Below are positions 70-61,289 of a stretch of DNA of 64,000 bases, one piece after another. Both the position numbers and the translations under genes were made by a program. The notes below the pieces were generated by a model. It searched no databases, was not told the DNA's origin, and was given only the letters and a program-made list of their open reading frames with translations. Origin of the DNA: a virus; the IMG/VR virus record IMGVR_UViG_3300045988_130225, positions 1 through 64,000 of that record; one strand, 5' to 3'. Every line of letters starts with the position of its first letter. Within the stretch, counting starts at the first letter, position 1.

Positions 70-240
70 ATCTGTATCTAATCAAATATAAGAATTTACA
101 GATATGTACCGATGGCTAAGTCGGGAATTAACGACTGTGGAGTGTACAAGAACCTGTGAGTAGCGTATTACTTGTAATCGCCAAAGCATACACAATGAAG
201 CAGTAACTATAAATCGTGAGATTATAGCAAATCATCTAGC
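70..240 (+). ncRNA. TnpB right-end / omega-RNA-like scaffold, diverged copy 2
   Basis: Positions 70-203 align by eye with the minus strand of 59976-60108 (shared blocks ATCTGTATC, ATATGTAC, TGGAG, CAAGAAC-TGTGAGTAG, AAAGCATAC, TGAAGYAG). A hairpin CTATAA/TTATAG follows at 207-227. Confidence 0.45.
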
Positions 241-3042: not shown

Positions 3043-3071
3043 TTGACAAATCATATAATTTGTGATAGAAT
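3043..3071 (+). promoter_or_regulatory. Sigma-A-type promoter, extended -10
   Basis: TTGACA, 17-nt spacer, TAGAAT, with TGn directly upstream of the -10. Confidence 0.75.
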
Positions 3072-7373: not shown

Positions 7374-7518
7374 AAAAGAATCATATAATTGGTTAAGATT
7401 TTTTGGTGAATTAATATTGGTTATTTTAATTTCACCGATTTTAATTATATTAACTATTGTATTTGTTATTGTAGAATGGTTAATAAAATTATATGAAAAA
7501 TATTTCAAAAAGCATTGA
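7345..7518 (+). CDS. Possible small membrane protein (57 aa), below the ORF-track cutoff
   Basis: An ATG at 7345 overlaps the primase 3' end. The product has a hydrophobic core (LILVILISPILIILTIVFVIV). Confidence 0.3.
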   Translation: MKKEKLLNSKKESYNWLRFFGELILVILISPILIILTIVFVIVEWLIKLYEKYFKKH

Positions 7519-7543
7519 CATATCGTACAAAATATGTTATGAT
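7515..7543 (+). promoter_or_regulatory. Sigma-A-type promoter, extended -10
   Basis: TTGACA, 17-nt spacer, TATGAT with TGT upstream. Confidence 0.7.
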
Positions 7544-7581
7544 AAATCTATCAAATTAATAACGAAAGGAAAATATAAACA

Positions 7582-18437: not shown

Positions 18438-18897
18438 AAATTGGATAATCAAAGTATGGGATAAGCGTAAGGACAATTTAGAGCCAGAAGAATATAATTT
18501 ATCACATGATAAATTTGCAAAACTTATATTTAATGATATACTTACAATAATACCATCACTTATGCAGTCGGAATATAATACTATTTCAGTTAATTTTTGC
18601 AATATAAAAAAAGAAAGGCTTATTATTCAAGTATTTTGTAATATTTACAGAAATAGCAAAAATTCTAAATTTCAAAGAGAACGTTGTAATAGAAAAGATT
18701 ATTATTGGCATTTTGATTTATATATTGATAAAAACAACTTCGGTAGTAGTTATCAACAATTAGTTACTGCTAGAAATATTTTAAAAAGTCTTATTAAAGA
18801 AGAACCGCATTATTCACAAGACGAGATAAGTAATTTAATGGAAAAAGCTAGGGAGTTAGATAGAGAGAATATCGAAGAAGATGTAGATAACTCTTGA
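18421..18897 (+). CDS. Hypothetical protein (158 aa)
   Basis: Start moved to the ATG at 18421, which follows AAAGGAGAA. Confidence 0.6.
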   Translation: MLERIKNWIIKVWDKRKDNLEPEEYNLSHDKFAKLIFNDILTIIPSLMQSEYNTISVNFCNIKKERLIIQVFCNIYRNSKNSKFQRERCNRKDYYWHFDLYIDKNNFGSSYQQLVTARNILKSLIKEEPHYSQDEISNLMEKARELDRENIEEDVDNS

Positions 18898-18923
18898 CAA
18901 CTCAACATATAGTATGCTATAAT
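18894..18923 (+). promoter_or_regulatory. Sigma-A-type promoter, extended -10, for the nrd operon
   Basis: TTGACA, 18-nt spacer, TATAAT with TGC upstream. Confidence 0.7.
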
Positions 18924-18925
18924 AA

Positions 18926-18975
18926 AAACGTGCCTAAATCTAGTGGTTTTATTTAAAATCCGATTAGGCACGTTT
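18926..18975 (+). promoter_or_regulatory. Leader stem-loop at the predicted 5' end of the nrd transcript
   Basis: 12-bp stem AAACGTGCCTAA (18926-18937) / TTAGGCACGTTT (18964-18975) with a 26-nt loop, followed by TAGTTTTG. Confidence 0.5.
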
Positions 18976-19112
18976 TAGTTTTGTGGTAACACTTAGTACA
19001 AGCGTTCCAGATTCACAAATGATAAAGTTATCGTATAAGTAGATTAAATAGGAGTTAGCATGGTTGTAATGCTTGATAACCTATTGCAAAAATAGAAAGT
19101 GAGGAAAAAATA

Positions 19113-19337: not shown

Positions 19338-21269
19338 ATGAATATTAATATCAAACTTAATAAGAATTTTACAACTCAATATAATAAACTTCAAGAAGAA
19401 TTTGGTATAGATATAGCCAAAATCAACGGATTTGACGATAATCAACTTAGCCATACAAATTTTATTGATAATTTTATCGACCAATCTACAGTAGCAGATG
19501 CAAGTATTGATGGAAATAGTAATGTATCTCATAAAGACATTGTTACTCTTGAAAAAGAAATGCCAAAACCCCATGAAAAATTACTTGCTTTTAATAAAAT
19601 TTATTATGAACTACAAAAAAAATATGGATTTCAAACAGCTAATGAATGGTTACGTGCTGAATGGATTGGACAGTTATATATGCATGATGCTAATACAACT
19701 ACGTTCAAACACTATTGTTTCGCTTACGATTTAAAGGATTTAGCTGAAAAAGGTCTATATTTTATTGAGGGAAGAAACGCAAAACCTGCAAAACATTTAA
19801 TCACTTTCGTAGACTTTGTAAAAGAATTTATTAGTTATGCTTGCAATCGTAGTTCTGGTGCAGTTGGTTTACCTAACTTAATCCCTTATATGTATTATTT
19901 CTGGAAGAAAGATGTAGACAACAACTATATTCTTCGAGATAAAGAATATTATGCAAAACAAGCGTTCCAAAGATTTATCTATGCTGTAAATCAACCTTAT
20001 CTTCGTGATGGCTCTCAATCAGCTTTTACTAATACCTCTGTATTTGACAGACCTTATTTTGAAGCATTGTTTGGTGGTTCTGAATTTCCAGATGGAACTT
20101 TTATGATAGATTATGAAGAAGAAATTATTGAGTTCCAAAAATGGTATATGGAAACAATGGCAGAAATCAGACATGATAATATGTTCACATTTCCTGTATC
20201 TACAATCAGCTTACTTAGACAAAACGGTGAATTTGTAGATAAAGAATTTGCTGAATGGGGTATTAAACATAATATGGAATGGTCTGACAGTAATTTATTT
20301 GTTGATACTTCTGTAAATTCTTTAAGTAATTGTTGTAGATTAAAGAGTAATATCAAAGAGTTAGGTTATTTTAATAGTGTGGGAGGCACAGCTTTAAAAG
20401 TAGGTTCAGTCAAAGTGTCTACTGTAAATCTTGCTAGAATTGCTCTTGATACAAGTACAGAATATGAATATTTGAAAGAATTAGAAAAAAGAGTAGTTAT
20501 CAATTTAAAAGCATTGGATTGTGTAAGACATATTATTAAAAGAAATGTAGAAAAAGGTTTGTTACCTAATTTTAGTCATGGATTAGTTGACTTCCCTCAT
20601 CTTTACAATACTATTGGATTCATTGGAATTTATGAAACAATGAAAAAGTTTGGTTATACTAAGTTAGATGAATTTGGAAATACTTATTATACACATCAAG
20701 CATCTGAATTTGGCAAAAAGATTTTTGAAGTTATGAGAAAAACTGCTGATAATTTCATTAAACAATATAACTGTGATTACCAGATTAACACAGAACAAAT
20801 TCCCGGAGAATCAGCGGCGGCTAAACTTATGAAGAAAGATAAATTTTTCTATCCAGAAGCTAATATTTATGACTTACCTCTTTATGGCAATCAATTTATT
20901 CCTTTAGGTATTAAAACTACTGGGCAAGAACGTGTAAGAATTGCATCTGAATTTGATGGATATTGTTCTGGTGGTTCTATTCTTCACTACAATATTGATG
21001 CACCATTTGATTCTTTTGATAAAGCATGGAAGATGGTTAATTATATTGCAGACCAAGGTGTTACTTACTTTGCTTTTAATACAAAAATTCAAGCATGTAA
21101 ACACAACCACGCTTTTTATGGAAAAATTTGTCCTGTTTGTGGTGAACCAGTAGATACAGAATTTACCCGTATTGTTGGATTTTATACACCAGTTAAATCA
21201 TATTCACAAGAACGTAAAGAAGAATTTAAAATGAGAAAATGGGAGAACGATAAGAATTTGGGAGAATAA
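19338..21269 (+). CDS. nrdD: Anaerobic (class III) ribonucleoside-triphosphate reductase
   Basis: NCCRLKS active-site loop, C-terminal Zn ribbon CKHNH...CPVCG and glycyl-radical motif RIVGFYTPV. Confidence 0.92.
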   Translation: MNINIKLNKNFTTQYNKLQEEFGIDIAKINGFDDNQLSHTNFIDNFIDQSTVADASIDGNSNVSHKDIVTLEKEMPKPHEKLLAFNKIYYELQKKYGFQTANEWLRAEWIGQLYMHDANTTTFKHYCFAYDLKDLAEKGLYFIEGRNAKPAKHLITFVDFVKEFISYACNRSSGAVGLPNLIPYMYYFWKKDVDNNYILRDKEYYAKQAFQRFIYAVNQPYLRDGSQSAFTNTSVFDRPYFEALFGGSEFPDGTFMIDYEEEIIEFQKWYMETMAEIRHDNMFTFPVSTISLLRQNGEFVDKEFAEWGIKHNMEWSDSNLFVDTSVNSLSNCCRLKSNIKELGYFNSVGGTALKVGSVKVSTVNLARIALDTSTEYEYLKELEKRVVINLKALDCVRHIIKRNVEKGLLPNFSHGLVDFPHLYNTIGFIGIYETMKKFGYTKLDEFGNTYYTHQASEFGKKIFEVMRKTADNFIKQYNCDYQINTEQIPGESAAAKLMKKDKFFYPEANIYDLPLYGNQFIPLGIKTTGQERVRIASEFDGYCSGGSILHYNIDAPFDSFDKAWKMVNYIADQGVTYFAFNTKIQACKHNHAFYGKICPVCGEPVDTEFTRIVGFYTPVKSYSQERKEEFKMRKWENDKNLGE

Positions 21270-27848: not shown

Positions 27849-27915
27849 AAGTTATTTCTCCTTTAAACCTTTATTTATTGAACCTCACACCACTAAAGTA
27901 ACGAGTGTTCTCGCC

Positions 27916-28107
27916 TTATTTAATAAAAACAGCTATAAGCATTGTCACCGTAGCAAATACTGATAAATAAGTAACAGCCTTTGCAAGTATAACAGCATAG
28001 TCATAATTACGTTTAGAAGAATTAATCATAAATATAATTACAAGTAAAATAAATGCAAATATTAAACTTAAAATAGAAATTGCCGATAAAATAGAAGCTG
28101 TACTCAT
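27916..28107 (-). CDS. Small two-TM protein, holin candidate
   Basis: 63 aa with two hydrophobic segments, directly downstream of the lysin. Confidence 0.5.
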   Translation of the reverse strand: MSTASILSAISILSLIFAFILLVIIFMINSSKRNYDYAVILAKAVTYLSVFATVTMLIAVFIK

Positions 28108-28134
28108 ATTTTTATTTTCCTTTCGCTTTTTATC

Positions 28135-29055
28135 TTAATCTTCTTTATTAGTAAGTCCACTAAATTTAAGACTTCCATCATCACTTGCGCTAAATTTAAT
28201 ATTAACGTCTGATACCATAGCACCGTTTTCATCAAGATAATACCAACTACCATTATCTTCTAACAGTCCTTTTCTCATAGCACCAGTATCATCTAAATAA
28301 TACCATTTATCATGGTACTTATACCAAGTATTAGTTAAACATGCCCCTGCACCATCAAAATAATACCAATTATCTTTATATTCAAGCCACTGATTAGAAA
28401 TCATACCACCATCACCAGACAAATAGTACCACTTTCCATCTTCATAAAACCACTGACTTGTGATTAATTTCCCCTCACCGTCCATAACATACCAACGGTT
28501 ATTATCATTAACCCATGAGTTCACTACAATAATTCCATTTCTATAATATCTCCATGAGCCGTTTACCTTAAAGAAACCGTTTTTATATTCAGTAACGGTA
28601 TTATCATATATAATATCTTTAATCTTAAATGCTTTTTTCCATGGTGTCGAATTTAAGTTACTCTGGATAACCCCGTAATTGATACCTTTTGCTTCGATTA
28701 CATGGTTACGGTCAAGTACAATGCCGATATGACCTTGTTTCCACACTGCGTAACCCAGTTTATCATCTGTTAATTTAGACGGTGGGATTTTGCTGTTACC
28801 AGTCTGTTCAAACTGTCCAGAACCACGAATGATACCAGTATACCATGAAATTAGTCCAGAACAGTCAACAGCTTCTTCACCTACCCATTGTAAAGCCTTA
28901 TTAATATAAGCTTGTGTGTAAATATTTGGATATTGCCTAGCCCATGAATAAATCTTAGTCTTAGTAAGAATCTCACCTTTAGCACCATAAACATAATGAA
29001 CGCCTATTTTACTTTTGGCAAATTCCACTAAACCTTTTGCTGTTTTATTAGCCAT
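28135..29055 (-). CDS. Endolysin: NlpC/P60 endopeptidase plus CW_binding_1 (choline-binding-type) repeats
   Basis: Catalytic AVDCSGLISW and GHIGIV. The C-terminus carries repeated W(Y)YYxxxxGxMxxxxW units. Confidence 0.9.
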   Translation of the reverse strand: MANKTAKGLVEFAKSKIGVHYVYGAKGEILTKTKIYSWARQYPNIYTQAYINKALQWVGEEAVDCSGLISWYTGIIRGSGQFEQTGNSKIPPSKLTDDKLGYAVWKQGHIGIVLDRNHVIEAKGINYGVIQSNLNSTPWKKAFKIKDIIYDNTVTEYKNGFFKVNGSWRYYRNGIIVVNSWVNDNNRWYVMDGEGKLITSQWFYEDGKWYYLSGDGGMISNQWLEYKDNWYYFDGAGACLTNTWYKYHDKWYYLDDTGAMRKGLLEDNGSWYYLDENGAMVSDVNIKFSASDDGSLKFSGLTNKED

Positions 29056-29079
29056 TATTCTACTTTCCTTTCATATAAT

Positions 29080-29136
29080 TTTAGAAAGCTATATGCTTCT
29101 ACTTACGATAATAGCACATAGCTTTCTAAAAGTCAA
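29080..29136 (-). promoter_or_regulatory. Sigma-A-type promoter embedded in a 17-bp inverted repeat, upstream of the lysin
   Basis: Minus strand reads TTGACT (29131-29136), 17-nt spacer, TATTAT (29108-29113). The spacer itself (29114-29130) is one arm of the inverted repeat; the other arm is 29080-29096 (one mismatch). Confidence 0.6.
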
Positions 29137-29153
29137 TAGATACACTTATATTT

Positions 29154-30815
29154 TTACTGATTTTTTATCCACACAAGTCTTACTTTACAGTTACAAGTCT
29201 TATCGTCACCTTGGGATTTAAGATAAATCAAAGCATTGTAAGTACCATCTGGTGTAATATCCAAAGAGCAATGACCTACAAATGGGTTAGTATCATCAAT
29301 AACCAAAGTAGCAGATATTGGAGTATAACCACTTTGCATTGCTAAATCGTAACTATACCATTGTTCCTCGCCACTTGCGATTGTCAATTCATAAGCAACA
29401 TCTGTATATTTAATAATAGAATTTACAGTATTTGCAACTTGATTTTCGTCAAAAGTCATTTTCCAAGCGTTCAAACTTTCAACGTCATGTTGGCATCTTT
29501 CAAAAGAATCCGCTAATGTTTTAAACTGGTTATAATTTACTGCGTCATTTTTCTGTTGTCCTGCCCTAATACCTCTTAAAATTACATCTTGGTTTGTATC
29601 ACCAGTATGAACACCAGTAATAACCTTTACATATTCTGGAATTTCTGTATCAGTATTAATAGAAGCTTGTGAAGTTTCTCTGATAAAATACGTGTTATTT
29701 GCACTATCATTAATTCCACCATAAATCTCTACAGCAGAAGTATTGATTAATTTATACTGTTTCATATCTAAATCTTTAGTAGGAATAAAATCAGTGGGTA
29801 AATGAGTTTCAAAATATTTTTTATTAACAGCGTCAGTATTTTGAACAGGGGTATCTACACCTCTAACAATAACTGGATTGCCGTTTTTATCTGTTAAATC
29901 CAATATACCACTTGCTTCATCACCGTTTACAGTAAGATTAATACACATATTGGCGTTATCAGCTTTTTGAATAGTGACTTGATTTTCTGTAACAGAATTT
30001 ACAATATCATCAACATATTTCTTATTAACAGCCATATTATCACCAGTAGGTTCAGCAATACCATCAATTTGAACTGGTGCAAGTGTTCCATCTTGAACAC
30101 CTTTAGGATAAGTACCAACCAGTAAATGATATTCCTCACCAGTCATAGCAGAAGTTATAAAAGGAACTAATCTACCGTCTGTTAATGATACTGGGTCAGC
30201 AAAATAAAATCTGTCCCCACTATCCATTACCATGGAATTTTTAAACACATAAGCCAAATCATTTTGACCTAAAACAAATTCTTCTTGACCACTGTCCAAA
30301 ACTGGACTATGCTCAATCCCATATTCTTTTATATTATCAGCATATTTCTTATTTACAGTATCATTATCGTTTGTTGGTGTATCAATTCCCCTAAGTTTAA
30401 TATCTTTCTTTGTCTTAGGATTAGATAATTCAACAGTAGTTCCGTTATCAATTTCACTTGTAATTTCGTGAGGAATGATACCAACATATCCAGTTTCACC
30501 TAATGTCAATTCACTTGCGTTTTCAACTTGATAACCAGACATATTTATAGCACCTTGCATAGTACCACCAGATAAAGGCAAGTAATCACCAGTAGCAGTC
30601 ATTCCACCACCCGTTGTAACAGAAGTAGCAGAACTTATCTTTTTCCATACGCCATTTTCTTTATCCCAACGGTACTCTTGCATATTGTGATCTATTTCAT
30701 AAAACACACTACCGTTAGGGATTGTATCATCAGTAGGTTTAATGTCTGTGGAAATACCATAAAATTCAGTATAGGAAAGTCCGTTAGCACCACCAACTTT
30801 ATTTACTGTTCTCAT
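29154..30815 (-). CDS. Tail fibre / receptor-binding protein B
   Basis: Its N-terminal ~60 aa are a paralog of fibre A. It contains repeated (N/D)D(T/A)VNKKY(A/V/F) motifs and sits just upstream of the lysis genes. Confidence 0.75.
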   Translation of the reverse strand: MRTVNKVGGANGLSYTEFYGISTDIKPTDDTIPNGSVFYEIDHNMQEYRWDKENGVWKKISSATSVTTGGGMTATGDYLPLSGGTMQGAINMSGYQVENASELTLGETGYVGIIPHEITSEIDNGTTVELSNPKTKKDIKLRGIDTPTNDNDTVNKKYADNIKEYGIEHSPVLDSGQEEFVLGQNDLAYVFKNSMVMDSGDRFYFADPVSLTDGRLVPFITSAMTGEEYHLLVGTYPKGVQDGTLAPVQIDGIAEPTGDNMAVNKKYVDDIVNSVTENQVTIQKADNANMCINLTVNGDEASGILDLTDKNGNPVIVRGVDTPVQNTDAVNKKYFETHLPTDFIPTKDLDMKQYKLINTSAVEIYGGINDSANNTYFIRETSQASINTDTEIPEYVKVITGVHTGDTNQDVILRGIRAGQQKNDAVNYNQFKTLADSFERCQHDVESLNAWKMTFDENQVANTVNSIIKYTDVAYELTIASGEEQWYSYDLAMQSGYTPISATLVIDDTNPFVGHCSLDITPDGTYNALIYLKSQGDDKTCNCKVRLVWIKNQ

Positions 30816-33473: not shown

Positions 33474-33502
33474 ATAATACTACTTGTCACCTTATTTGTC
33501 AA
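33474..33502 (-). promoter_or_regulatory. Sigma-A-type promoter
   Basis: Minus strand reads TTGACA, 17-nt spacer, TATTAT. Confidence 0.7.
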
Positions 33503-36116: not shown

Positions 36117-36806
36117 TTAAACTTCGATAGATAAAATTTTCCACCATTGACCACCAACTTCTAATTGTTCGTCAGTTGGTTCTGTTTCAGATACAATAAC
36201 TCTTGCTTTTGGAAACTTCATAAATACCTGCCATGTGCTAGGTGTGGTATCTGGTTGAACATTTGTATTCGCTTTTAAAGCAATATACATTACATTTTCA
36301 TAAGTAACAACGTCATTAATAGCATAATTTACTGTTTTATCCCAAACATCTTTTAACTGAACGTCAATACTTGTCGCACCAACCTCACCTTTTAAGCCAA
36401 TCAACACCCAGTATTCCATATCAGTAGGCAGATTTCCAGTTGATTGTTTTAAACACATATAAACTTGTTTGTCATAAACAACAAAGTTATACATTTCATA
36501 TTGTATATCAGCTTGATATTCTTTCTTATTTATGTAATTATTAAGCATTGTCTGAAATAATTGTTCATCTTCTGCAAGTTTAACCTCTACTGCATTGTAA
36601 TATAAATTCTGTAAATATTCAAGAGCCGTATGAATCATATTGAAACATATTGGCATAACCGTTTCAGAATCAATGTCATCATTGTTCATAATTAACGCTA
36701 ATGCTTGACTAAAATAACCCTCTCTAAAATATTGAGAAAACTGTTGCATTAAGTTTCTATTACTTAATGATAAGTCTTGCCAACGTCTGACTTCAAAACT
36801 TGCCAT
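36117..36806 (-). CDS. Tail/baseplate protein with a C-terminal CBM5/12-like repeat
   Basis: WDKTVNYAINDVVTYENVMYIALKANTNVQPDTTPSTW. Confidence 0.65.
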   Translation of the reverse strand: MASFEVRRWQDLSLSNRNLMQQFSQYFREGYFSQALALIMNNDDIDSETVMPICFNMIHTALEYLQNLYYNAVEVKLAEDEQLFQTMLNNYINKKEYQADIQYEMYNFVVYDKQVYMCLKQSTGNLPTDMEYWVLIGLKGEVGATSIDVQLKDVWDKTVNYAINDVVTYENVMYIALKANTNVQPDTTPSTWQVFMKFPKARVIVSETEPTDEQLEVGGQWWKILSIEV

Positions 36807-36820
36807 ATTTTTTTCCTTTC

Positions 36821-37552
36821 TTAGTTCACAATTCTAAACCATAAATCACCAGTTTCTTGTTGACTTGGCGTTCCCCCTTGTACTGGAATTTCTCTAGGTC
36901 TAACAGAACCAATATTAACCCAGTATTGCGAACCCTCAAAAGGTGCTTGGTTATTATTAGCTTCAATACAAGCCCACACATAGTTACCGTATGTTACTAC
37001 GTTCTGTGTGGTGTAATGTACTGTACTATCCCATTCTCCTAAGAAAGACAATCCCTCACCAGAATCACCTTTTTCACCACGAATAGAAAGCACTCGCCAA
37101 TAAGTTGTATTTGTGGGATCTGTTCCCAAAGGTGGATTAGTAACAGCAATATACACATAATTTACACCGTTATAGGTGTATGTTACAAAGTTATTCTTAG
37201 AATAGGTTATAGTAGGGTTATATATTCCCTTATAGCCAAATAAATTGATGATATTCTGCCATTTAATTTGCTTGCCCTCTACATAAGGTTGCACATCAGT
37301 TTTATAAAAATTTTCCAACGCTTCACAAGTATTGATAATCGTATTTAATTTTTGAGCATTGATAATCTTTTGATTACCGTTTGGAATTTGTGCAAATATA
37401 TTTTGTGCGGTTTCATAATCATTAGACTGAATAGCTGTCTGATATTGCTGAATTAATTGTGCGTCAGAAGCCGTAATATCCAAAAAAGTTGTAAATGTTT
37501 GTACTTGATTAGGAAAAGTCGTACTCGGAAATTGAGGGTAACGTTCACTCAT
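36821..37552 (-). CDS. Tail/baseplate protein with two CBM5/12-like repeats
   Basis: YSKNNFVTYTYNGVNYVYIAV...YW and WDSTVHYTTQNVVTYGNYVWACIEAN...YW. Confidence 0.65.
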   Translation of the reverse strand: MSERYPQFPSTTFPNQVQTFTTFLDITASDAQLIQQYQTAIQSNDYETAQNIFAQIPNGNQKIINAQKLNTIINTCEALENFYKTDVQPYVEGKQIKWQNIINLFGYKGIYNPTITYSKNNFVTYTYNGVNYVYIAVTNPPLGTDPTNTTYWRVLSIRGEKGDSGEGLSFLGEWDSTVHYTTQNVVTYGNYVWACIEANNNQAPFEGSQYWVNIGSVRPREIPVQGGTPSQQETGDLWFRIVN

Positions 37553-37586
37553 AAATCACACTTCCTTTCTATGTAATCTAAATATT

Positions 37587-37615
37587 ATTATATATTATTC
37601 TTTATTTTATTACAA
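37587..37615 (-). promoter_or_regulatory. Sigma-A-type promoter restarting the baseplate/fibre operon
   Basis: Minus strand reads TTGTAA, 17-nt spacer, TATAAT, immediately after the terminator. Confidence 0.55.
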
Positions 37616-37650
37616 CAAAAAAGAGTGAATCTATTAAGAAACACTCTTTC
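37613..37650 (-). terminator. Rho-independent terminator of the non-coding unit
   Basis: Minus strand has the AAAGAGTG / CACTCTTT stem (37620-37627 / 37642-37649) followed by TTTTTTG. Confidence 0.7.
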
Positions 37651-37995
37651 TTGCTACCAAAAACGTATTACAGGAGGTTTAATGAAAATAAGAAAAATAT
37701 GCTTAGTTCTTTTTTCCAAGCATTATGTCACCATTCACCTTTTATCTCTCGCACATAAAAGGGTTCAGCTTTTTGTGACTAACTACCTATCTAATCATAG
37801 GTTAGTTTGAATTGTCACCATCACAGGCTTTTTTCAACTTTAGCTGAATTAATTTCATTATCACTATGGCAAGTAAATGATAATGAAAATCCAGTTAAGA
37901 AAAGGAACGTTGTGGATTTTTCGCACATGGATACGAACAACAATGTATACAATTTATAAGGAGAACATATATCTTTTATTTCCTTTCCTTAACTT
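37620..37995 (-). ncRNA. Candidate structured non-coding RNA (~380 nt)
   Basis: It lies between its own promoter (38002-38030) and terminator. No minus-strand ORF reaches 60 aa, and it contains at least five internal perfect 5-9-bp hairpins. Confidence 0.5.
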
Positions 37996-38001
37996 AATTA
38001 T

Positions 38002-38030
38002 ATCTTACCATACTTTACGCCTTGTGTCAA
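38002..38030 (-). promoter_or_regulatory. Sigma-A-type promoter, extended -10, for the non-coding unit
   Basis: Minus strand reads TTGACA (38025-38030), 17-nt spacer, TAAGAT (38002-38007) with TGG upstream. Confidence 0.7.
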
Positions 38031-38057
38031 TAGTTATTTTGAAATATTTCCACTTAT

Positions 38058-39470
38058 TTAGAAACTTTCGTATTCTGGATAATAAGCAATCATACTTATA
38101 TTCATTGAACCACTTTCTTGCATATCAGCACTAAAACTTTTTACAAGATACTGTTTTGGAACTGTAGAATCTTTAGGTGTGTATGAAACAACTATATTTA
38201 CGTCAAGCCACCATATAGGGACACATGTCAAACTTACACTGTCATTCATTCTGGTTCGTAAATATAATTCATATTTAGCACGTTGTCTTGCTAAATCATT
38301 AGTATATATATTATCATATTCACCCCCAGACAAAGGAATTGCTATCTCACCTATTGTACCCCCTACATAATAAGGGCTTTGTGGATTATCGTCTTTAGCT
38401 TCACCGTATATCTGTTGATAGCCTAGGTATATAAACTTACCATTCTGGTATCTGGCAACGTAATACTGGTTGTTACGGTCTAGTACCGCCGCTGTTCCGT
38501 CCTCATTAACCAAAGGTAATGCGCTGTTATCATTCACTTTAATATAAGGACTTGCAACTGCTGTAGTAGCCGTCCAACCTACTGTGAAACTTGTATCTGC
38601 ATCAAAAGTTGTTGGATAATCTGCAATAGTAAGAGTATAAGTATTTCCACTCTGAGTTATATTACTTGGATAATATGTTGGGTCGATTGATTTTCCAAAT
38701 ACTCTTACTACATTTTTAACGCTTTCAAAATCAGACGTAATACTTTCTGATGTTACAATATTATCCCATACATCGTCATCCAATAAAGACGGTTCATTAT
38801 GTCCACTTGGAATCTTTTGATACCTAAATACTCCGTTTACATCAAAGAAAATTTCCATAGTTGCATCTACATCTCTTAATTGAGAAAGTAATGAATAAAC
38901 ACTATCACCAACGTCTACTTGTATATCATAAGGTAAAGCATATGGCAATTCTTCAAGGACATATTTAGTTACTCCTACTAACTTTAACACACTAATCATA
39001 GCGTTTCTTACGTTACTACCTTGTGGAATCGTTGTTGGCATATCTGAAATATAACCATTTCTTGTACCATTCAGTCTTGCCATAAGGTCAAGTCCCTCAA
39101 ATGATAATGAATTAGTAGAAGCGTCATAATTCCATGTAGGGGTATTGATAAGATAAATACCTAAATTTACCCATTCCCAGTCTTTTGCAAGTATATCATA
39201 TTCACCTATATAAATCTGAACATATCTATCCAACCATATTCTTCCACCAGATTTTATCTCAAAATCAGCGGTATCTTTCAGTGCTAAAGTAATACTACAT
39301 GAACGCCTTTGGTCATTGTTACTATCACAATTTATATTACCACTGATAACATAACCCTGTATTTCATTTACGGTCTGATACTCATAATTGAGCAGATTTA
39401 TCTTTATTTGACGTTCTCTCATTCGTTGTTTTGCGATATTGTATAAATTTTGCGTTATATTTAATGGCAT
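38058..39470 (-). CDS. Tail/baseplate structural protein (470 aa), function unassigned
   Basis: Large ORF in the post-tape-measure array. Confidence 0.65.
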   Translation of the reverse strand: MPLNITQNLYNIAKQRMRERQIKINLLNYEYQTVNEIQGYVISGNINCDSNNDQRRSCSITLALKDTADFEIKSGGRIWLDRYVQIYIGEYDILAKDWEWVNLGIYLINTPTWNYDASTNSLSFEGLDLMARLNGTRNGYISDMPTTIPQGSNVRNAMISVLKLVGVTKYVLEELPYALPYDIQVDVGDSVYSLLSQLRDVDATMEIFFDVNGVFRYQKIPSGHNEPSLLDDDVWDNIVTSESITSDFESVKNVVRVFGKSIDPTYYPSNITQSGNTYTLTIADYPTTFDADTSFTVGWTATTAVASPYIKVNDNSALPLVNEDGTAAVLDRNNQYYVARYQNGKFIYLGYQQIYGEAKDDNPQSPYYVGGTIGEIAIPLSGGEYDNIYTNDLARQRAKYELYLRTRMNDSVSLTCVPIWWLDVNIVVSYTPKDSTVPKQYLVKSFSADMQESGSMNISMIAYYPEYESF

Positions 39471-39483
39471 AATTTATCCTCCC

Positions 39484-40416
39484 TTACGTTCCAGTAGTAG
39501 AAACTCCACTTACTACTGGTTCTACTAATCCAAATTCCATAAGGTCTTTTTCGTTATTTGCGTCACCAACCTCAACGTAATCAAAGGAAATATCTACCTT
39601 TCCCATACCCCAGTTGTTGTCATATGTAATGTTTGGTTCTGAACTTGGATAAACCAAATGTATCGAGTTATTCCAATCCTTTATGATTTTTGCTTTATTA
39701 TTTGTGATATAATTCAATATTTCTTCTGTTAATTTATTGATTTCGTATCTATTCATTATCCTATTCTTTTCATAATCCAAAGGTAGGACAGTAAAACTGA
39801 TACTATTGCTGTAATAATTCGTCTTAGCATTAGCAACAATTACTGGATATTTACTACCATAAGGCTCAAATACACCTATCTTCTTAACACGTTTACCAGT
39901 ACCATATGCTACCCCAGCGTAGAATTTATATATACTATCCTTTTCACAAATGAATACGCCCTTGAATTGAGAAGTGATACTATTGGTAATATAATCGCCC
40001 TCAGCACCGTTCAATATAGGAACTAAAGCATATTCATAATCTGTATTATTAGCGGCTATATAATCATTAAAAGCAAAGTTTAAATCTTCAAATGCTTTTA
40101 CTGTAACTGTCTTTAAAGTAACCCAGTTAAATGTACCTTTAATTCTACGTTTTACTTTAATAGCGGTCAAATATTGCAGTAAGAAATCTACATTACCGCC
40201 ATTGATATTACCGTCAAAATTAGCAACAATAATATCAAGATAAGCCCATTCAGTATTTTTAATAGGTGAATAATCACTAGTTACATTACTAGTTAAATGA
40301 AAATGGTCAAAGATACCGTTCTGAACTTGAACTGTTGTTACATTATTTACACTGGTAGGTGCAATATCTAGGCTGTTACCGTCTTGTACGAAATTGTACC
40401 CTAAGAAAGAAAACAT
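39484..40416 (-). CDS. Tail/baseplate structural protein (310 aa), function unassigned
   Basis: ORF in the post-tape-measure array. Confidence 0.65.
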   Translation of the reverse strand: MFSFLGYNFVQDGNSLDIAPTSVNNVTTVQVQNGIFDHFHLTSNVTSDYSPIKNTEWAYLDIIVANFDGNINGGNVDFLLQYLTAIKVKRRIKGTFNWVTLKTVTVKAFEDLNFAFNDYIAANNTDYEYALVPILNGAEGDYITNSITSQFKGVFICEKDSIYKFYAGVAYGTGKRVKKIGVFEPYGSKYPVIVANAKTNYYSNSISFTVLPLDYEKNRIMNRYEINKLTEEILNYITNNKAKIIKDWNNSIHLVYPSSEPNITYDNNWGMGKVDISFDYVEVGDANNEKDLMEFGLVEPVVSGVSTTGT

Positions 40417-49602: not shown

Positions 49603-49977
49603 TTAATCACCACAAAGGTTAGCAAATACAATACCAGTAATTGCTCTCAAATCAGCCTTATTCAAAGTTCCAATATAGTTCTTAAACCTTGACTTATCCA
49701 CAGCACGAATTTGTTCAGCACAAGCAACGCTATCATCTACAAGAAATTTATTTTTTTCTTTAGATAATGTATAGTGTGTAAGCAAATCTTCTCTTTTAAC
49801 TTTAGAAGTTAAAGGTACTATGATTATGGTAGGGCTATAAAAATTTCCAGTATCATTCTGTAAAATTAATACTGGTCTTACTCCGCCTTGTTCTGAACCT
49901 TGGGTATTCCTTAAATCAGCATAATAAACTTCCCCTCTTTTGAATGTTCTTGCGTTATTGTTTATTGTTGTAAACAT
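49603..49977 (-). CDS. mazF: MazF/PemK (EndoA-like) endoribonuclease toxin
   Basis: RGEVYYADL....GSEQGGVRPVLILQND.GN..SPT.I.VPLTS closely parallels Bacillus EndoA/NdoA. Confidence 0.9.
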   Translation of the reverse strand: MFTTINNNARTFKRGEVYYADLRNTQGSEQGGVRPVLILQNDTGNFYSPTIIIVPLTSKVKREDLLTHYTLSKEKNKFLVDDSVACAEQIRAVDKSRFKNYIGTLNKADLRAITGIVFANLCGD

Positions 49978-50025
49978 ATTCAGTTCTCCTTATGTACTAT
50001 ATTTTTATATAACTTTCATATAATA

Positions 50026-50054
50026 TATATAGCACTTTTTATTTACAAAGTCAA
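50026..50054 (-). promoter_or_regulatory. Sigma-A-type promoter, extended -10, dedicated to mazF
   Basis: Minus strand reads TTGACT (50049-50054), 17-nt spacer, TATATA (50026-50031) with TGC upstream. Confidence 0.7.
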
Positions 50055-50059
50055 TACTT

Positions 50060-59939: not shown

Positions 59940-60108
59940 AACTTATAAAAAGTTATAAACTTTTATGTTTCATTCCTACTTCAACGAGTATGCTTTCATA
60001 ATTATTTCTAATATACTACTCACAAGTTCTTGCACTCTCCATAGGCGTAAATTCCGAACTAACGTATTCGTACATATTTATATCAACCTGAAATGCTATG
60101 ATACAGAT
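59940..60108 (-). ncRNA. Predicted omega-RNA (reRNA) scaffold of the TnpB element
   Basis: In this family the omega-RNA spans the 3' end of tnpB through the right end. This stretch is conserved relative to 70-203 and preserves a hairpin through compensatory changes. Confidence 0.5.
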
Positions 60109-61289
60109 TGATTTAAAACATTTTCTCCATATCTTTTAAGATTTAAAGATGCTTGATAATCTCTGTCAATCATATTACCGCAATCACATTTATAAACACG
60201 GTCTGATAATTTTAAATCTTTTTTAATTTTGCCACAACAACTGCATAATTTAGAACTAGGAAAAAACCTATCAGCAACTATTACAGTAATATTATTCCAT
60301 TTACTTTTATATTTAATTTGCCGTCTAAACTCATAAAATCCTTGCTGTTGTATAGCTTTGGATAAATGTTTATTTTTCATCATACCTTTTACATTCAAAT
60401 CTTCAATACAAATAAAACTTGGTTCTCGCTTTATAATTTCAGAAGTTATTTGATGTAAATAATTCTTGCGAATATTTGTTAGTTTATGATTTACTTTTAA
60501 AAGTTTCTTTTCGCTTTTTACAATGTTACTTGTTTTACAATAACTATCTCCTTTCTTGTTTTTTAAATATTCCCTAGAAACAGAACGCTGTAACCTACGT
60601 TTTTTCTTCTCTAACTGTTTTATCTTTTGTGATTTATTTATATTTTGATATTTATAATTATTAGAACAAATAGCTAAATCTTTAATTCCTAAATCAATAC
60701 CAATTCCTTCTTTATTAGGAATATTTACACTATCTGGATATTCTACACCAACTGTAATCCACCAATTTAATCCGTCAAATTTAATTCTAGGATTATAATA
60801 TTTACAATCTGTCGGTATACGATTACGTTCAGCAAGTCGTATCCAGTTTAATTTCTGCTTATTTTTCTTTTTAGATTTTGTAAATCCTTCAACTTTTACA
60901 TGAGTTTCAGAAAATTGAATTTTTACACTATCTTGGTAAAAGGAGGGTGTAGATTTTTTTCTGTTTTTAAATTTAGGAAAGTTTGTCAAGCCTTTAAAAA
61001 ATTTCTTATAAGCATCACAAGCATCTTTAATAGCTTGTTTTGTGACATTGTTAGAAATATCATTTAACCAGACATATTTCTGTGTATGTTTCATTTTTGT
61101 AAATTCTTTTCGCAAATCCGTATCAGATAGAAATTTACCACCATTTTTATAATTTTCTTGTTCTCTTGCTAATGCCCAGTTATAAGCAAATCGAGCAGTG
61201 TAAGCATACTGAAGCAATTTTGTCTTTTGTTTATTGTTTGGAATTAACATTACTCGAATCGTTTTTAACACATTGTTCGCCACCTTCAT
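60096..61289 (-). CDS. tnpB: TnpB RNA-guided nuclease (IS605 OrfB family)
   Basis: GIDLGIKDLA (RuvC-I Asp), CIEDLNVKGM (RuvC-II Glu), Zn finger CSCCG...CDCG and DRDYQAS (RuvC-III Asp). The true start may be the GTG at 61271, which follows AAGGTGG. Confidence 0.9.
   Translation of the reverse strand: MKVANNVLKTIRVMLIPNNKQKTKLLQYAYTARFAYNWALAREQENYKNGGKFLSDTDLRKEFTKMKHTQKYVWLNDISNNVTKQAIKDACDAYKKFFKGLTNFPKFKNRKKSTPSFYQDSVKIQFSETHVKVEGFTKSKKKNKQKLNWIRLAERNRIPTDCKYYNPRIKFDGLNWWITVGVEYPDSVNIPNKEGIGIDLGIKDLAICSNNYKYQNINKSQKIKQLEKKKRRLQRSVSREYLKNKKGDSYCKTSNIVKSEKKLLKVNHKLTNIRKNYLHQITSEIIKREPSFICIEDLNVKGMMKNKHLSKAIQQQGFYEFRRQIKYKSKWNNITVIVADRFFPSSKLCSCCGKIKKDLKLSDRVYKCDCGNMIDRDYQASLNLKRYGENVLNQSVS

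Follow-up and report, generated by a model that had tools for sequence, protein, structure and literature searches.

Two minus-strand tail genes of an uncultured gut phage are separated by 505 bp of non-coding DNA, which very probably contain a phage gene for a small RNA of a new family, though of a familiar sort. The gap (37553..38057, minus strand), here called the cassette, lies in the 64,000-nt window that we analysed, positions 1-64,000 of IMG/VR virus record IMGVR_UViG_3300045988_130225. We consider it likely that the RNA unit is real and that selection maintains its structure. Our preferred explanation, to which as a whole we give a probability of about 0.45, is that the baseplate/tail-fibre operon acquired, in the ancestor of a single small clade, a moron-like cassette that forms an independent gene for a non-coding RNA. 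A promoter at its upstream end (P1) would start a transcript of ~380 nt that is ended by an intrinsic terminator, and a second promoter (P2) would resume transcription for the receptor-binding and tail-fibre genes further downstream, which would otherwise be shut off by the terminator. In trans the RNA would be a base-pairing regulator, its exposed CU-rich motifs occluding the ribosome-binding sites of host or phage mRNAs and its accessory domain adding stability or a protein-binding surface. Phages of Gram-positive gut anaerobes have hardly been studied at the level of RNA and have yielded few known non-coding RNAs, and the cassette offers a candidate with comparative support: defined boundaries, about nine covarying helices, and natural short, long and deletion variants.

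Insertion and transcription signals

The cassette is preceded on the minus strand by the stop codon of a baseplate gene (38058..39470) and followed directly by the ATG of gene 36821..37552, which encodes a conserved tail protein also present in relatives without the unit. Where the cassette is absent, the same two genes nearly abut: the distance is 11 nt in PMBT24 and in the CB457/CB473 phages such as CB457P2, 12 nt in L115, 18 nt in L014, and 1-20 nt in ~70 other, more distant relatives. In the unit-bearing clade the gap measures 243-553 nt, and because the genes are separated by only 1-20 nt in the ~70 relatives, we take it to be a clade-specific insertion; insertion into a late structural operon had been predicted for the window. 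The flanking protein is 69-100% identical across lineages whose unit boundaries are conserved. Carriers are uncultured gut siphophages of roughly 60-105 kb, relatives of Enterocloster phage PMBT24 with an SPbeta-like tail module.

These properties invite comparison with phage morons of the Hendrix type. As in morons, the cassette is inserted in the tail-gene region, between genes that are adjacent in related phages, and as far as can be read from its letters it brings its own promoter and terminator around its cargo. Unlike the protein gene of a moron, often of deviant base composition, the cargo is a non-coding RNA with ~29% G+C against 30-35% in the flanks, which is no deviation. The cassette also differs in bringing a restart promoter, and would be an example of a moron-type cassette whose cargo is an RNA and which, through such a promoter, rewires a tail operon into two units. 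Because the cultured relative PMBT24 is virulent (PMC11035940), expression from a prophage is no obvious reason for carrying the cassette.

P1 (38002..38049, minus strand) is a predicted sigma-A-type extended -10 promoter, comprising a -35 TTGACA (38030-38025), a 17-nt spacer that ends in the extended -10 TGG, a -10 TAAGAT (38007-38002), and an UP-like AAATATTTCAAAA (38049-38037). All homologs retain the -35, the TG and the -10; L113 and L116 have TGATAATAT. P1 shares its class with intergenic promoters at 3043, 7515, 15347 and 18894, in the plus-strand gene block on the far side of the window, and its UP-like 13-mer matches that of the promoter at 7515 exactly. The plus-strand block is probably early; since P1 shares its promoter class, we infer that the RNA is probably made early as well.

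The predicted intrinsic terminator (37617..37651, minus strand; AAGAAAGAGUGUUUCUUAAUAGAUUCACUCUUUUUU) contains a hairpin, AAGAAAGAGUG..CACUCUUUUUU, that folds at -19.5 kcal/mol. A simple terminator scan missed it, probably on account of its internal loop. It is kept in every copy of the unit, with a compensatory change from GAGUG/CACUC to GAGCA/UGCUC in L107 and L108, and with U·G and G·U pairs in L113 that are workable on the minus strand only. P2 abuts the T-run of the terminator and is a predicted promoter of TTGTAA (37615-37610), a 17-nt spacer and TATAAT (37592-37587), spanning 37587..37615 on the minus strand. Every homolog has it, as TTGYAA or TTACAA followed after 17-18 nt by TATAAT or TATAAA, and the sequence of the spacer varies. 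In a promoter scan of 36500-39500, P1 and P2 were two of the three matches with the top score, 10/12. The original prediction had described an independent, structured non-coding unit that runs from a promoter to a terminator of its own and has a restart promoter behind it; each of the sequence features that it listed is present at the positions given, including both promoters and five inverted repeats, and at the level of sequence the description is supported, having withstood all the computational refuting checks that came with it.

Structure and coding potential of the predicted RNA

No ORF of at least 25 aa on either strand is conserved among the nine variants compared, each being frameshifted, truncated or absent in some lineage. 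On the minus strand the longest ORFs had been put at 17-21 codons, which is too short: one of 43 codons runs from a TTG (37821..37952), 35 codons of it from an internal ATG, and L009 frameshifts this 43-aa ORF. The plus-strand ORFs of the unit, of 85, 61 and 50 codons, are no better conserved. Frameshifts, premature stops and deletions thus affect each candidate in the homologs, in agreement with the non-coding character that had been proposed. ARAGORN found no tRNA or tmRNA.

The predicted RNA occupies 37617..37995 on the minus strand, its 3′ end being the U-run of the terminator and its 5′ end being placed near 37995 by reference to the -10. Folding the minus strand of 37610-37995 gives -99 kcal/mol, compared with -71.6±4.9 for shuffled sequences (z = -5.6), whereas the plus strand of the same region reaches a z of only -2.8; short forms of the unit also fold well (z = -3.9 and -5.9). 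The RNAalifold consensus structure has 88 pairs in 11 helices, and across seven distinct long forms 95% of the cells pair. Fifteen pairs are changed on both sides, compared with 4.6±1.7 in shuffles (0/500) and 1-3 in slid controls, although these covariation statistics rest on few events, in approximately seven independent lineages. Such double-sided changes are present in 9 of the 11 helices. G·U cells outnumber A·C cells (39 versus 8), which places the RNA on the minus strand. Helix order is identical in independent MFE folds of five divergent sequences.

All homologs share P1, a covarying 5′ hairpin, a CU-rich CCUCC motif, the terminator with its compensatory changes, and P2. The RNA core common to all lineages, ~135 nt in the shortest, thus comprises the 5′ hairpin, an A/U-rich stretch bearing CCUCC(U), and the terminator. 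Long forms, that of the window included, add a hairpin HC, a three-way junction and hairpins HE and HF, and carry a second motif, UUCUCCUU, inside the 5′ hairpin. This accessory domain is dispensable, a point against our preferred explanation, and several samples contain a naturally occurring deletion form (L009, L106, L133).

The 5′ hairpin is formed by H1 (37893..37994, minus strand), a 15-bp long-range stem in which AGUUAAGGAAAGGAA (37994-37980) pairs with UUCCUUUUCUUAACU (37907-37893). It corresponds to inverted repeat I1, is present in both the MFE and centroid structures, and encloses ~72 nt that include UUCUCCUU (37965-37958) and a conserved GCGAAAAAUCCACA. Its pairing is maintained as GUUAAGGG/CCCUUAAC in L107, CAGUCUAAAGAA/UUCCUUAGACUG in L113 and CAUAAAGAA/UUCUUUAUG in L116, by an A-U to G-C change at its base in L108, and by G·U to A-U and G-C to G·U changes in L009. 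Hairpin HC (37853..37888, minus strand; UUUCAUUAUCA/UGAUAAUGAAA, loop UUUACUUGCCAUAG) is inverted repeat I4, with 100% complementarity. As helix 4 of the consensus it has three pairs with double changes, and a different stem, UUACUGU/ACAGUAA, stands at its site in L107. Loop sequences are conserved both in HC (CUUGCCA) and in H1 (GCGAAAAAUCCACA).

The three-way junction (37764..37848, minus strand) is closed by UUCAGCU (37848-37842) with AGCUGAA (37770-37764). Its first arm pairs GUUGAA (37838-37833) with UUCAAAC (37811-37805) and its second CUAACCUAU (37805-37797) with AUAGGUAG (37790-37783). The junction helices, 5 to 8, are all changed on both sides, and L107, for instance, has UAGCC/GGCUA, GGUAA/UUACC and CUAACUUG/CAAGUAG. 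Hairpin HE (37738..37762, minus strand; CCUUUUAU/AUAAAAGG), which is helix 9, reads UCUUUG/CAAAGA in L107 and CCUUUUU/GAAAAGG in L108. Hairpin HF (37699..37723, minus strand; AUGCUUGG/CUAAGCAU) has compensatory changes in L108 (AUACUUAG/CUAAGUAU) and L107 (AUAUGUUUGG/CUAAACAUAU), which MAFFT partly misaligns. Most of the stems first noticed in the window are accordingly conserved and covarying. All are real repeats, but two of them are not kept by the homologs: AAAATCCA/TGGATTTT gives way to the 15-bp stem of 37980-37994 with 37893-37907, and the outer GTGAC/GTCAC, lost in L108, L107 and L114, gives way to the three-way junction.

Anti-Shine-Dalgarno motifs and alternative readings

The position and sequence of the CU-rich motifs raise the question of how the RNA might act. 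Motif 2 (UUUUCAUUAAACCUCC; 37673..37688, minus strand) has the character of an anti-Shine-Dalgarno sequence, and is the antisense of an AGGAGG-N4-ATGAAAA. A CCUCC, CUCCU or CCACC lies 25-50 nt ahead of the terminator in all seven lineages, and in the predicted folds of L107, L114 and L116 it sits in an apical hairpin loop, so that the RNA has a conserved and accessible seed of the kind expected of a base-pairing small RNA. Firmicute base-pairing small RNAs with C-rich anti-Shine-Dalgarno loops, which they use to block ribosome-binding sites, include S. aureus RNAIII and those of the RsaE/RoxS type. The predicted RNA resembles them in its sigma-A promoter, intrinsic terminator and hairpins, and in conserved CU- or C-rich anti-Shine-Dalgarno motifs in loops or single-stranded stretches; it differs in having no sequence or Rfam relationship to them, and in being larger than most, 380 nt with a three-way junction. 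Taken together, the cassette probably specifies a moron-like, independently transcribed structured small RNA acting through exposed anti-Shine-Dalgarno motifs, although base pairing by these motifs, considered by itself, is a suggestion that we make tentatively. If the motifs are seeds, the anti-Shine-Dalgarno loop mode of Firmicute small RNAs would extend to virulent phages.

Within the window, no partner was found for the sequence complementary to translation initiation regions. A role as repressor or antitoxin of the phage mazF gene (49603..49977; Pfam PemK, 2.4e-28), by pairing with its start region, was considered and rejected. The 26-bp duplex of that region with the RNA is striking only against mononucleotide shuffles and loses significance against shuffles that preserve the CUCCU core (18/200, p ~0.09). 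The duplex is not kept in the L107 phage, whose mazF region (L158) is on the same contig, and the gene also occurs in PMBT24-type phages without the unit. A further point against the preferred explanation is that a CUCC motif beside an A/U-rich tract may be no more than antisense of a former gene start.

Two other readings of the unit are each unlikely but deserve serious consideration. The first is a cis-acting operon boundary, in which the terminator and P2 uncouple the receptor-binding from the baseplate genes, the hairpins are 3′-UTR stabilisers and the P1 transcript is a by-product. The terminator and P2 are indeed the most strictly conserved parts of the unit, the central hairpins can be deleted in nature, and further internal sigma-A-like promoters lie on the tail-gene strand at 33502 and 29136. 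However, P1 is conserved as well as P2 and would not be needed by a boundary, nine helices upstream of the terminator keep their pairing through compensatory changes, and ~70 related phages manage without such a boundary. The second, of similar standing, is a protein-binding decoy, sponge or anti-defence RNA that would capture an RNA-binding protein of the host or a defence effector with its junction and array of hairpins. Consistent with this are the length of the RNA, which is great for a base-pairing small RNA, the covarying three-way junction and conserved HC and H1 loop sequences, the promoter class shared with the probably early plus-strand block, and the lack of an mRNA target in the window search and the mazF test. 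Short and deletion forms that lack the accessory domain argue against it, as does the absence of any likeness to known RNA decoys or CRISPR repeats and of tandem repeats of the ToxI type. A bolder reading, and an improbable one when all its parts are taken jointly, is an early-expressed countermeasure or takeover RNA of a new type with a modular scaffold of three-way junction and hairpins. Its two CUCCU motifs, which resemble the 3′ end of 16S rRNA, would mimic the ribosomal anti-Shine-Dalgarno sequence; the RNA would either titrate host mRNAs that bear Shine-Dalgarno sequences or act as a decoy for a defence protein or an RNA-binding protein of the host, and the accessory domain would come and go with changes of host.

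The remaining readings are less probable still. An attenuator or riboswitch-type leader, one of the roles first proposed, would make P1 transcripts respond to a signal, ending at the terminator or continuing into the tail-fibre genes. The order of promoter, structured RNA, terminator and genes is the classical layout of a leader, but the near-consensus P2 behind the terminator in every lineage, the lack on inspection of a conserved alternative pairing with the 5′ arm of the terminator and of any evident antiterminator, the deletion of the putative sensor domain in the viable variants L009, L106 and L133, and the absence of an Rfam riboswitch match make it very doubtful.

A type I toxin-antitoxin or cis-antisense pair, with a plus-strand peptide from the ATG at 37683 and the minus-strand RNA as antitoxin, is equally hard to sustain. 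SPbeta-type phages carry type I loci, a near-perfect Shine-Dalgarno sequence with ATGAAAA is found on the plus strand in six of the seven lineages, and the antisense overlap with this start region gives a superficial likeness to type I antitoxin RNAs. The ORF behind the AGGAGG-N4-ATG, unlike theirs, is not conserved: it varies from none to 42 aa and shifts frame between lineages. The window has the full 42 aa, a frameshift leaves L011 with 25 aa, L107 and L113 have 13 and 6 aa, L114 has 19 aa in another frame, and L108 lacks the ATG. It has no transmembrane-like segment, and the promoter scan found no plus-strand promoter between 37553 and 37683. Finally, a decaying remnant of a protein-coding moron is scarcely credible. 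In its favour, P1, AAGGAAAGGAAA and an ATG resemble the start of a gene, a 77-nt stretch at P1 matches the promoter and 5′ UTR of the plus-strand gene at 7515 with 70% identity, and the 5′ arm of H1 resembles a Shine-Dalgarno sequence and has a 4-codon ORF behind it. Pairing of 95% of cells, with 15 pairs doubly changed, is however not what neutral decay would preserve, nor is the order of the helices in lineages that are heavily diverged in unit sequence.

Known RNA systems and distribution

In lambda and lambdoid phages, small RNAs such as PreS/LPR1, LPR2, the 6S RNA from PR'-tR' and StxS have been described, which regulate host mRNAs and belong to Hfq-dependent, Gram-negative systems (bioRxiv 10.1101/2024.10.31.621285). 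The predicted RNA shares with them the character of a short non-coding transcript in a phage operon, some of theirs being late, that ends at an intrinsic terminator. The lambda 6S RNA, however, is an antitermination leader that is read through when Q acts, whereas here a second promoter follows the terminator. A Q-type leader was rejected for the cassette: it has no conserved Q-type pause element, and the -10-like repeat just after the -10 of P1 is lost in L107, L108 and L113. The series of promoter, structured RNA, terminator and downstream gene also bears a superficial likeness to the type III toxin-antitoxin locus toxIN, but ToxI consists of tandem repeats of ~36 nt ahead of a toxin gene that is expressed by read-through, and no tandem repeat family was found in 37400-38200, and the downstream gene here is a conserved tail protein with its own promoter.

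Against Rfam 15, with E-value limits of up to 5-10 for 37000-38600 and for six homolog loci, the best matches in 37000-38600 had E-values of at least 1.4, far under the gathering thresholds, and nothing was found in the unit of L006, L011, L107, L108, L113 or L114, which bears out the statement in the original prediction that no RNA family was recognised. No paralog of the unit was found in the window by nhmmer and blastn, save the promoter similarity at 7498-7572. Searches beyond the window recovered the cassette from 11 IMG/VR contigs, one MAG contig and 7 metagenome contigs, and from the divergent lineages L106, L107, L108-L112, L113, L114 and L116. Three variants compared by blastn with 50,697 phage records gave only promoter-like stretches of 46-54 nt, and pattern scans of IMG/VR, GTDB genomes and JGI metagenomes returned this clade only. 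A scan for the short-form motif gave six contigs, in which nhmmer found no copy of the unit.

An origin of the cassette from an IS200/IS605 element, or its identity as an end of such an element, a PATE or a TnpB omega-RNA, was considered and rejected, as the gap scored no better than shuffles against the LE and RE of the element in L018. At gathering thresholds the only Rfam family in the whole window is RAGATH-18, at positions outside the gap, and the gap itself has no RAGATH-18 match. An extra 46 nt in L004, L006, L007 and L011 is the only part that does belong to that IS200/IS605 element.

An inserted unit between two tail genes

The stop codon of the 470-aa baseplate gene (DUF5048; 38058..39470, minus strand) and the start codon (ATG) of a 243-aa tail gene (36821..37552, minus strand) border a non-coding gap of 505 nt (37553-38057, minus strand) with a G+C content of ~29% and no contrast with its flanks; CBM5/12, fn3 and glycine-rich tail-fibre-type genes lie 3′ of the tail gene. 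The two promoters and the terminator of the original prediction can all be read in the minus-strand sequence: P1, ahead of the RNA (TTGACA at 38030-38025, a 17-nt spacer ending in TGG, TAAGAT at 38007-38002); the hairpin AAGAAAGAGUG...CACUCUUUUUU (37617-37651, −19.5 kcal/mol); and the restart promoter P2 (TTGTAA, 17 nt, TATAAT; 37615-37587). A promoter scan of 36500-39500 gave its top score, a 10-of-12 match, to three sites, P1 and P2 among them; the terminator rule of that scan missed the hairpin, probably owing to the hairpin's internal loop.

Comparison with related loci establishes the cassette as an insertion of narrow distribution. The nearest cultured phages, the Enterocloster phages PMBT24 and CB457P/CB473P, match the baseplate gene only (~76% nucleotide identity) and have the baseplate and downstream tail gene 11 nt apart. 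Among the 80 loci of a profile-based IMG/VR scan, every relative with a 35-74% identical baseplate protein has its next gene within about 1-20 nt, the few larger distances being a product of start-codon calling, and the gap is confined to 11 contigs, whose baseplate protein is 97-100% identical. Intermediate lineages, found via relatives of the downstream protein, contain the unit in versions of 352-529 nt (L106, L107, L108-L112 and L114; 85-88% identical) or in a short version (L113, 72% and 243 nt; L116, 69%), and in L115 (65%) the gap is 12 nt. Near-identical or deletion forms occur in a MAG contig (L119, 85.8 kb, labelled 'Bacilli bacterium') and in seven contigs from metagenomes.

A conserved core and a variable accessory domain

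The predicted folding energy of the minus strand over 37610-37995 is −99 kcal/mol versus −71.6±4.9 for dinucleotide shuffles (z = −5.6), and the plus strand gives z = −2.8. Because an alignment of seven long forms contains 39 G·U and U·G cells versus 8 A·C and C·A cells, we assign the structure to the minus-strand transcript. As read from the aligned lineages, the core is the part common to all of them: P1 (−35, TG and −10), the 5′ hairpin, a CU-rich motif located 25-50 nt ahead of the terminator (UUUUCAU-N-CCUCC, CUCCUU or CCACC), the terminator itself and P2, so that promoter and terminator signals are conserved. The terminator stem GAGUG/CACUC becomes GAGCA/UGCUC in L107 and L108, and in L113 it includes U·G and G·U pairs, which the opposite strand would read as mismatches. 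By the same comparison, the 5′ hairpin covaries between lineages, pairing AGUUAAGGAAAGGAA with UUCCUUUUCUUAACU in the window, GUUAAGGG with CCCUUAAC in L107, CAGUCUAAAGAA with UUCCUUAGACUG in L113 and CAUAAAGAA with UUCUUUAUG in L116, with an A-U pair replaced by G-C in L108.

The long forms add ~70 nt to the loop of the 5′ hairpin, including UUCUCCUU and GCGAAAAAUCCACA, as well as the hairpins HC, HE and HF and, between HC and HE, a three-way junction whose closing stem is UUCAGCU/AGCUGAA and whose arms are GUUGAA/UUCAAC and CUAACCUAU/AUAGGUAG. Separate minimum free energy folds of the window, L132, L114, L108 and L107 have an identical helix order, and RNAalifold predicts 88 pairs in 11 helices for the seven distinct long forms. 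On a MAFFT alignment fitted to no structure, 95.0% of cells pair versus 92.2% in shuffles (0/500), and both sides change in 15 pairs versus 4.6±1.7 (0/500), a count that covers only about seven lineages, uses the alignment from which the structure was predicted, and is lowered, not raised, by misalignment in parts of L107 and L108. With the partner shifted by 1-3 columns, only 1-3 doubly changed pairs remain. In the unshifted alignment, 9 of the 11 helices contain at least one such pair. The alignment thus documents conserved RNA pairing on the minus strand. Two stems proposed from the window do not survive in this model: AAAATCCA/TGGATTTT clashes with the 15-bp 5′ long-range stem H1 and is missing in L108, L132 and L009, and the outer GTGAC/GTCAC stem is gone from L108, L107 and L114.

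The accessory domain is dispensable and tolerant of insertion, since natural variants lack or interrupt it. A deletion form (L009, L106, L133) is without the junction, HE and HF and retains P1, H1, HC, the CU-rich motif, terminator and P2; L113 and L116 have the core only (~135 nt; fold z = −3.9 and −5.9); and four contigs carry an additional 46 nt after GUUGAA, a miniature fusion of IS200/IS605 element ends (L006 5640-5685) that occurs inside the RNA unit and also at another site.

The unit contains no conserved ORF across the homologs compared. The longest minus-strand ORF, first put at about 17-21 codons, has 43 codons from TTG (35 from an internal ATG); it is frameshifted in L009, L132 and L114, shortened to 19 aa in L108, and missing in both L107 and L113. 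Plus-strand ORFs in the gap region have 85, 61 and 50 codons. The 85-aa ORF, which overlaps P1 and H1, is disrupted in both L108 and L107. The length of an ORF behind AGGAGG-N4-ATG varies from 42 aa (window) through 25 aa (L011, with one extra A), 19 aa (L114, in a different frame) and 13 aa (L107) to 6 aa (L113), and L108 has no ATG for it. The 36500-39500 scan placed no plus-strand promoter ahead of this small ORF. These broken frames remove a coding reading and, together with the missing plus-strand promoter, a type I toxin. No known RNA family matches the unit, and no curated family includes it. The original prediction of a structured non-coding RNA is upheld by the insertion, conserved signals, minus-strand pairing, and lack of a conserved ORF or known family; that the cassette is a real RNA unit is well supported.

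A candidate mode of action

P1 groups with the intergenic TTGACA/extended −10 promoters found in the plus-strand block, so host sigma-A polymerase probably transcribes the RNA from the onset of infection. Exact copies of the 13-mer AAATATTTCAAAA lie 4-6 nt upstream of the −35 at P1 (38037-38049, minus strand) and at the 7515 promoter (7498-7510, plus strand); the sequence could be a shared UP element or operator.

We tentatively favor occlusion of ribosome-binding sites in trans, at a probability of about one in three, because the core is built like a base-pairing sRNA (5′ stem-loop, A/U-rich single strand with a conserved seed, terminator), the candidate seed CCUCC(U) matches the complement of Shine-Dalgarno sequences, and predicted folds place it in an apical loop in L107 (AACCUCC), L114 and L116 (UCCAC). 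The long forms have a second UUCUCCUU. The predicted terminator would also end baseplate-operon transcripts, with P2 restarting the downstream genes. The main rival models, a cis-acting boundary and a protein decoy, seem to us about equally unlikely.

Within the window, the exact complement of the anti-TIR sequence (CU-rich motif 2, antisense of AGGAGG-N4-ATGAAAA) yielded no partner, and no target could be named among the 72 start regions searched. The best duplex of these, at a mazF/pemK toxin gene (49603..49977; −23.7 kcal/mol, 26 bp), was rejected: it failed a core-preserving shuffle (18/200) and is not conserved in the L107 phage, and mazF is also found in phages without the unit. The product of this minus-strand gene is an endoribonuclease toxin of the PemK/MazF family (Pfam E = 2.4e-28); the gene has its own promoter-like site (TTGACT-17-TGcTATATA) within 49978..50059 and no recognisable adjoining MazE antitoxin. 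The syntenic MazF of PMBT24-type phages is preceded by a 148-aa zinc-ribbon-like ORF, which the window lacks.

In position and predicted transcription the cassette fits the definition of a moron, but its cargo differs in being an RNA and a restart promoter. Acting by trans occlusion, it would work most like Firmicute sRNAs with anti-Shine-Dalgarno loops, and may be likened to the sRNAs encoded by phage lambda (10.1101/2024.10.31.621285). A role linked to lysogeny is not indicated, given that the cultured relative PMBT24, a siphophage, is virulent (PMC11035940).

Further promoters and mobile elements

Near-consensus sigma-A-type promoters also lie within the minus-strand tail/lysis block at 33474-33502, followed by ~130 nt without an obvious gene start, and at 29108-29136, so the late region appears to be split into several host-polymerase transcription units. 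At 18894-18990 (plus strand), the hairpin ACGUGCCUAAAUC.../...GAUUAGGCACGU and a U-run come immediately after a consensus promoter (TTGACA, 18 nt, TG-n-TATAAT), possibly marking a ~55-nt RNA or an attenuator upstream of the 643-aa gene at 19338.

A full IS200/IS605 copy, with TnpA Y1 (E = 1e-37) and TnpB, sits elsewhere in a near-identical phage, 3′ of the TTGAA pentamer that also precedes the 46-nt insert (L018 3143-4849; IMGVR_UViG_3300045988_114361). Empty sites in the window retain TTGAA, consistent with scarless insertion and excision. Derivation of the gap itself from such an element was rejected, as the window gap has no similarity to the element's ends. A 1.56-kb segment (window 27883-29439, L018 4850-6405), containing the 3′ end of a 553-aa gene together with an endolysin gene (NlpC/P60 and choline-binding), is inverted in contig 114361, where inverted IS-end copies flank it and the 553-aa gene is split. 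Two RAGATH-18 RNAs in the window (59973..60045, minus strand; 134..206, plus strand) also exceed the Rfam gathering score, one of them directly downstream of a TnpB (OrfB_IS605) homolog (60126..61271, minus strand); this pair resembles an IS605-type TnpB gene and its guide (omega) RNA in a phage genome.
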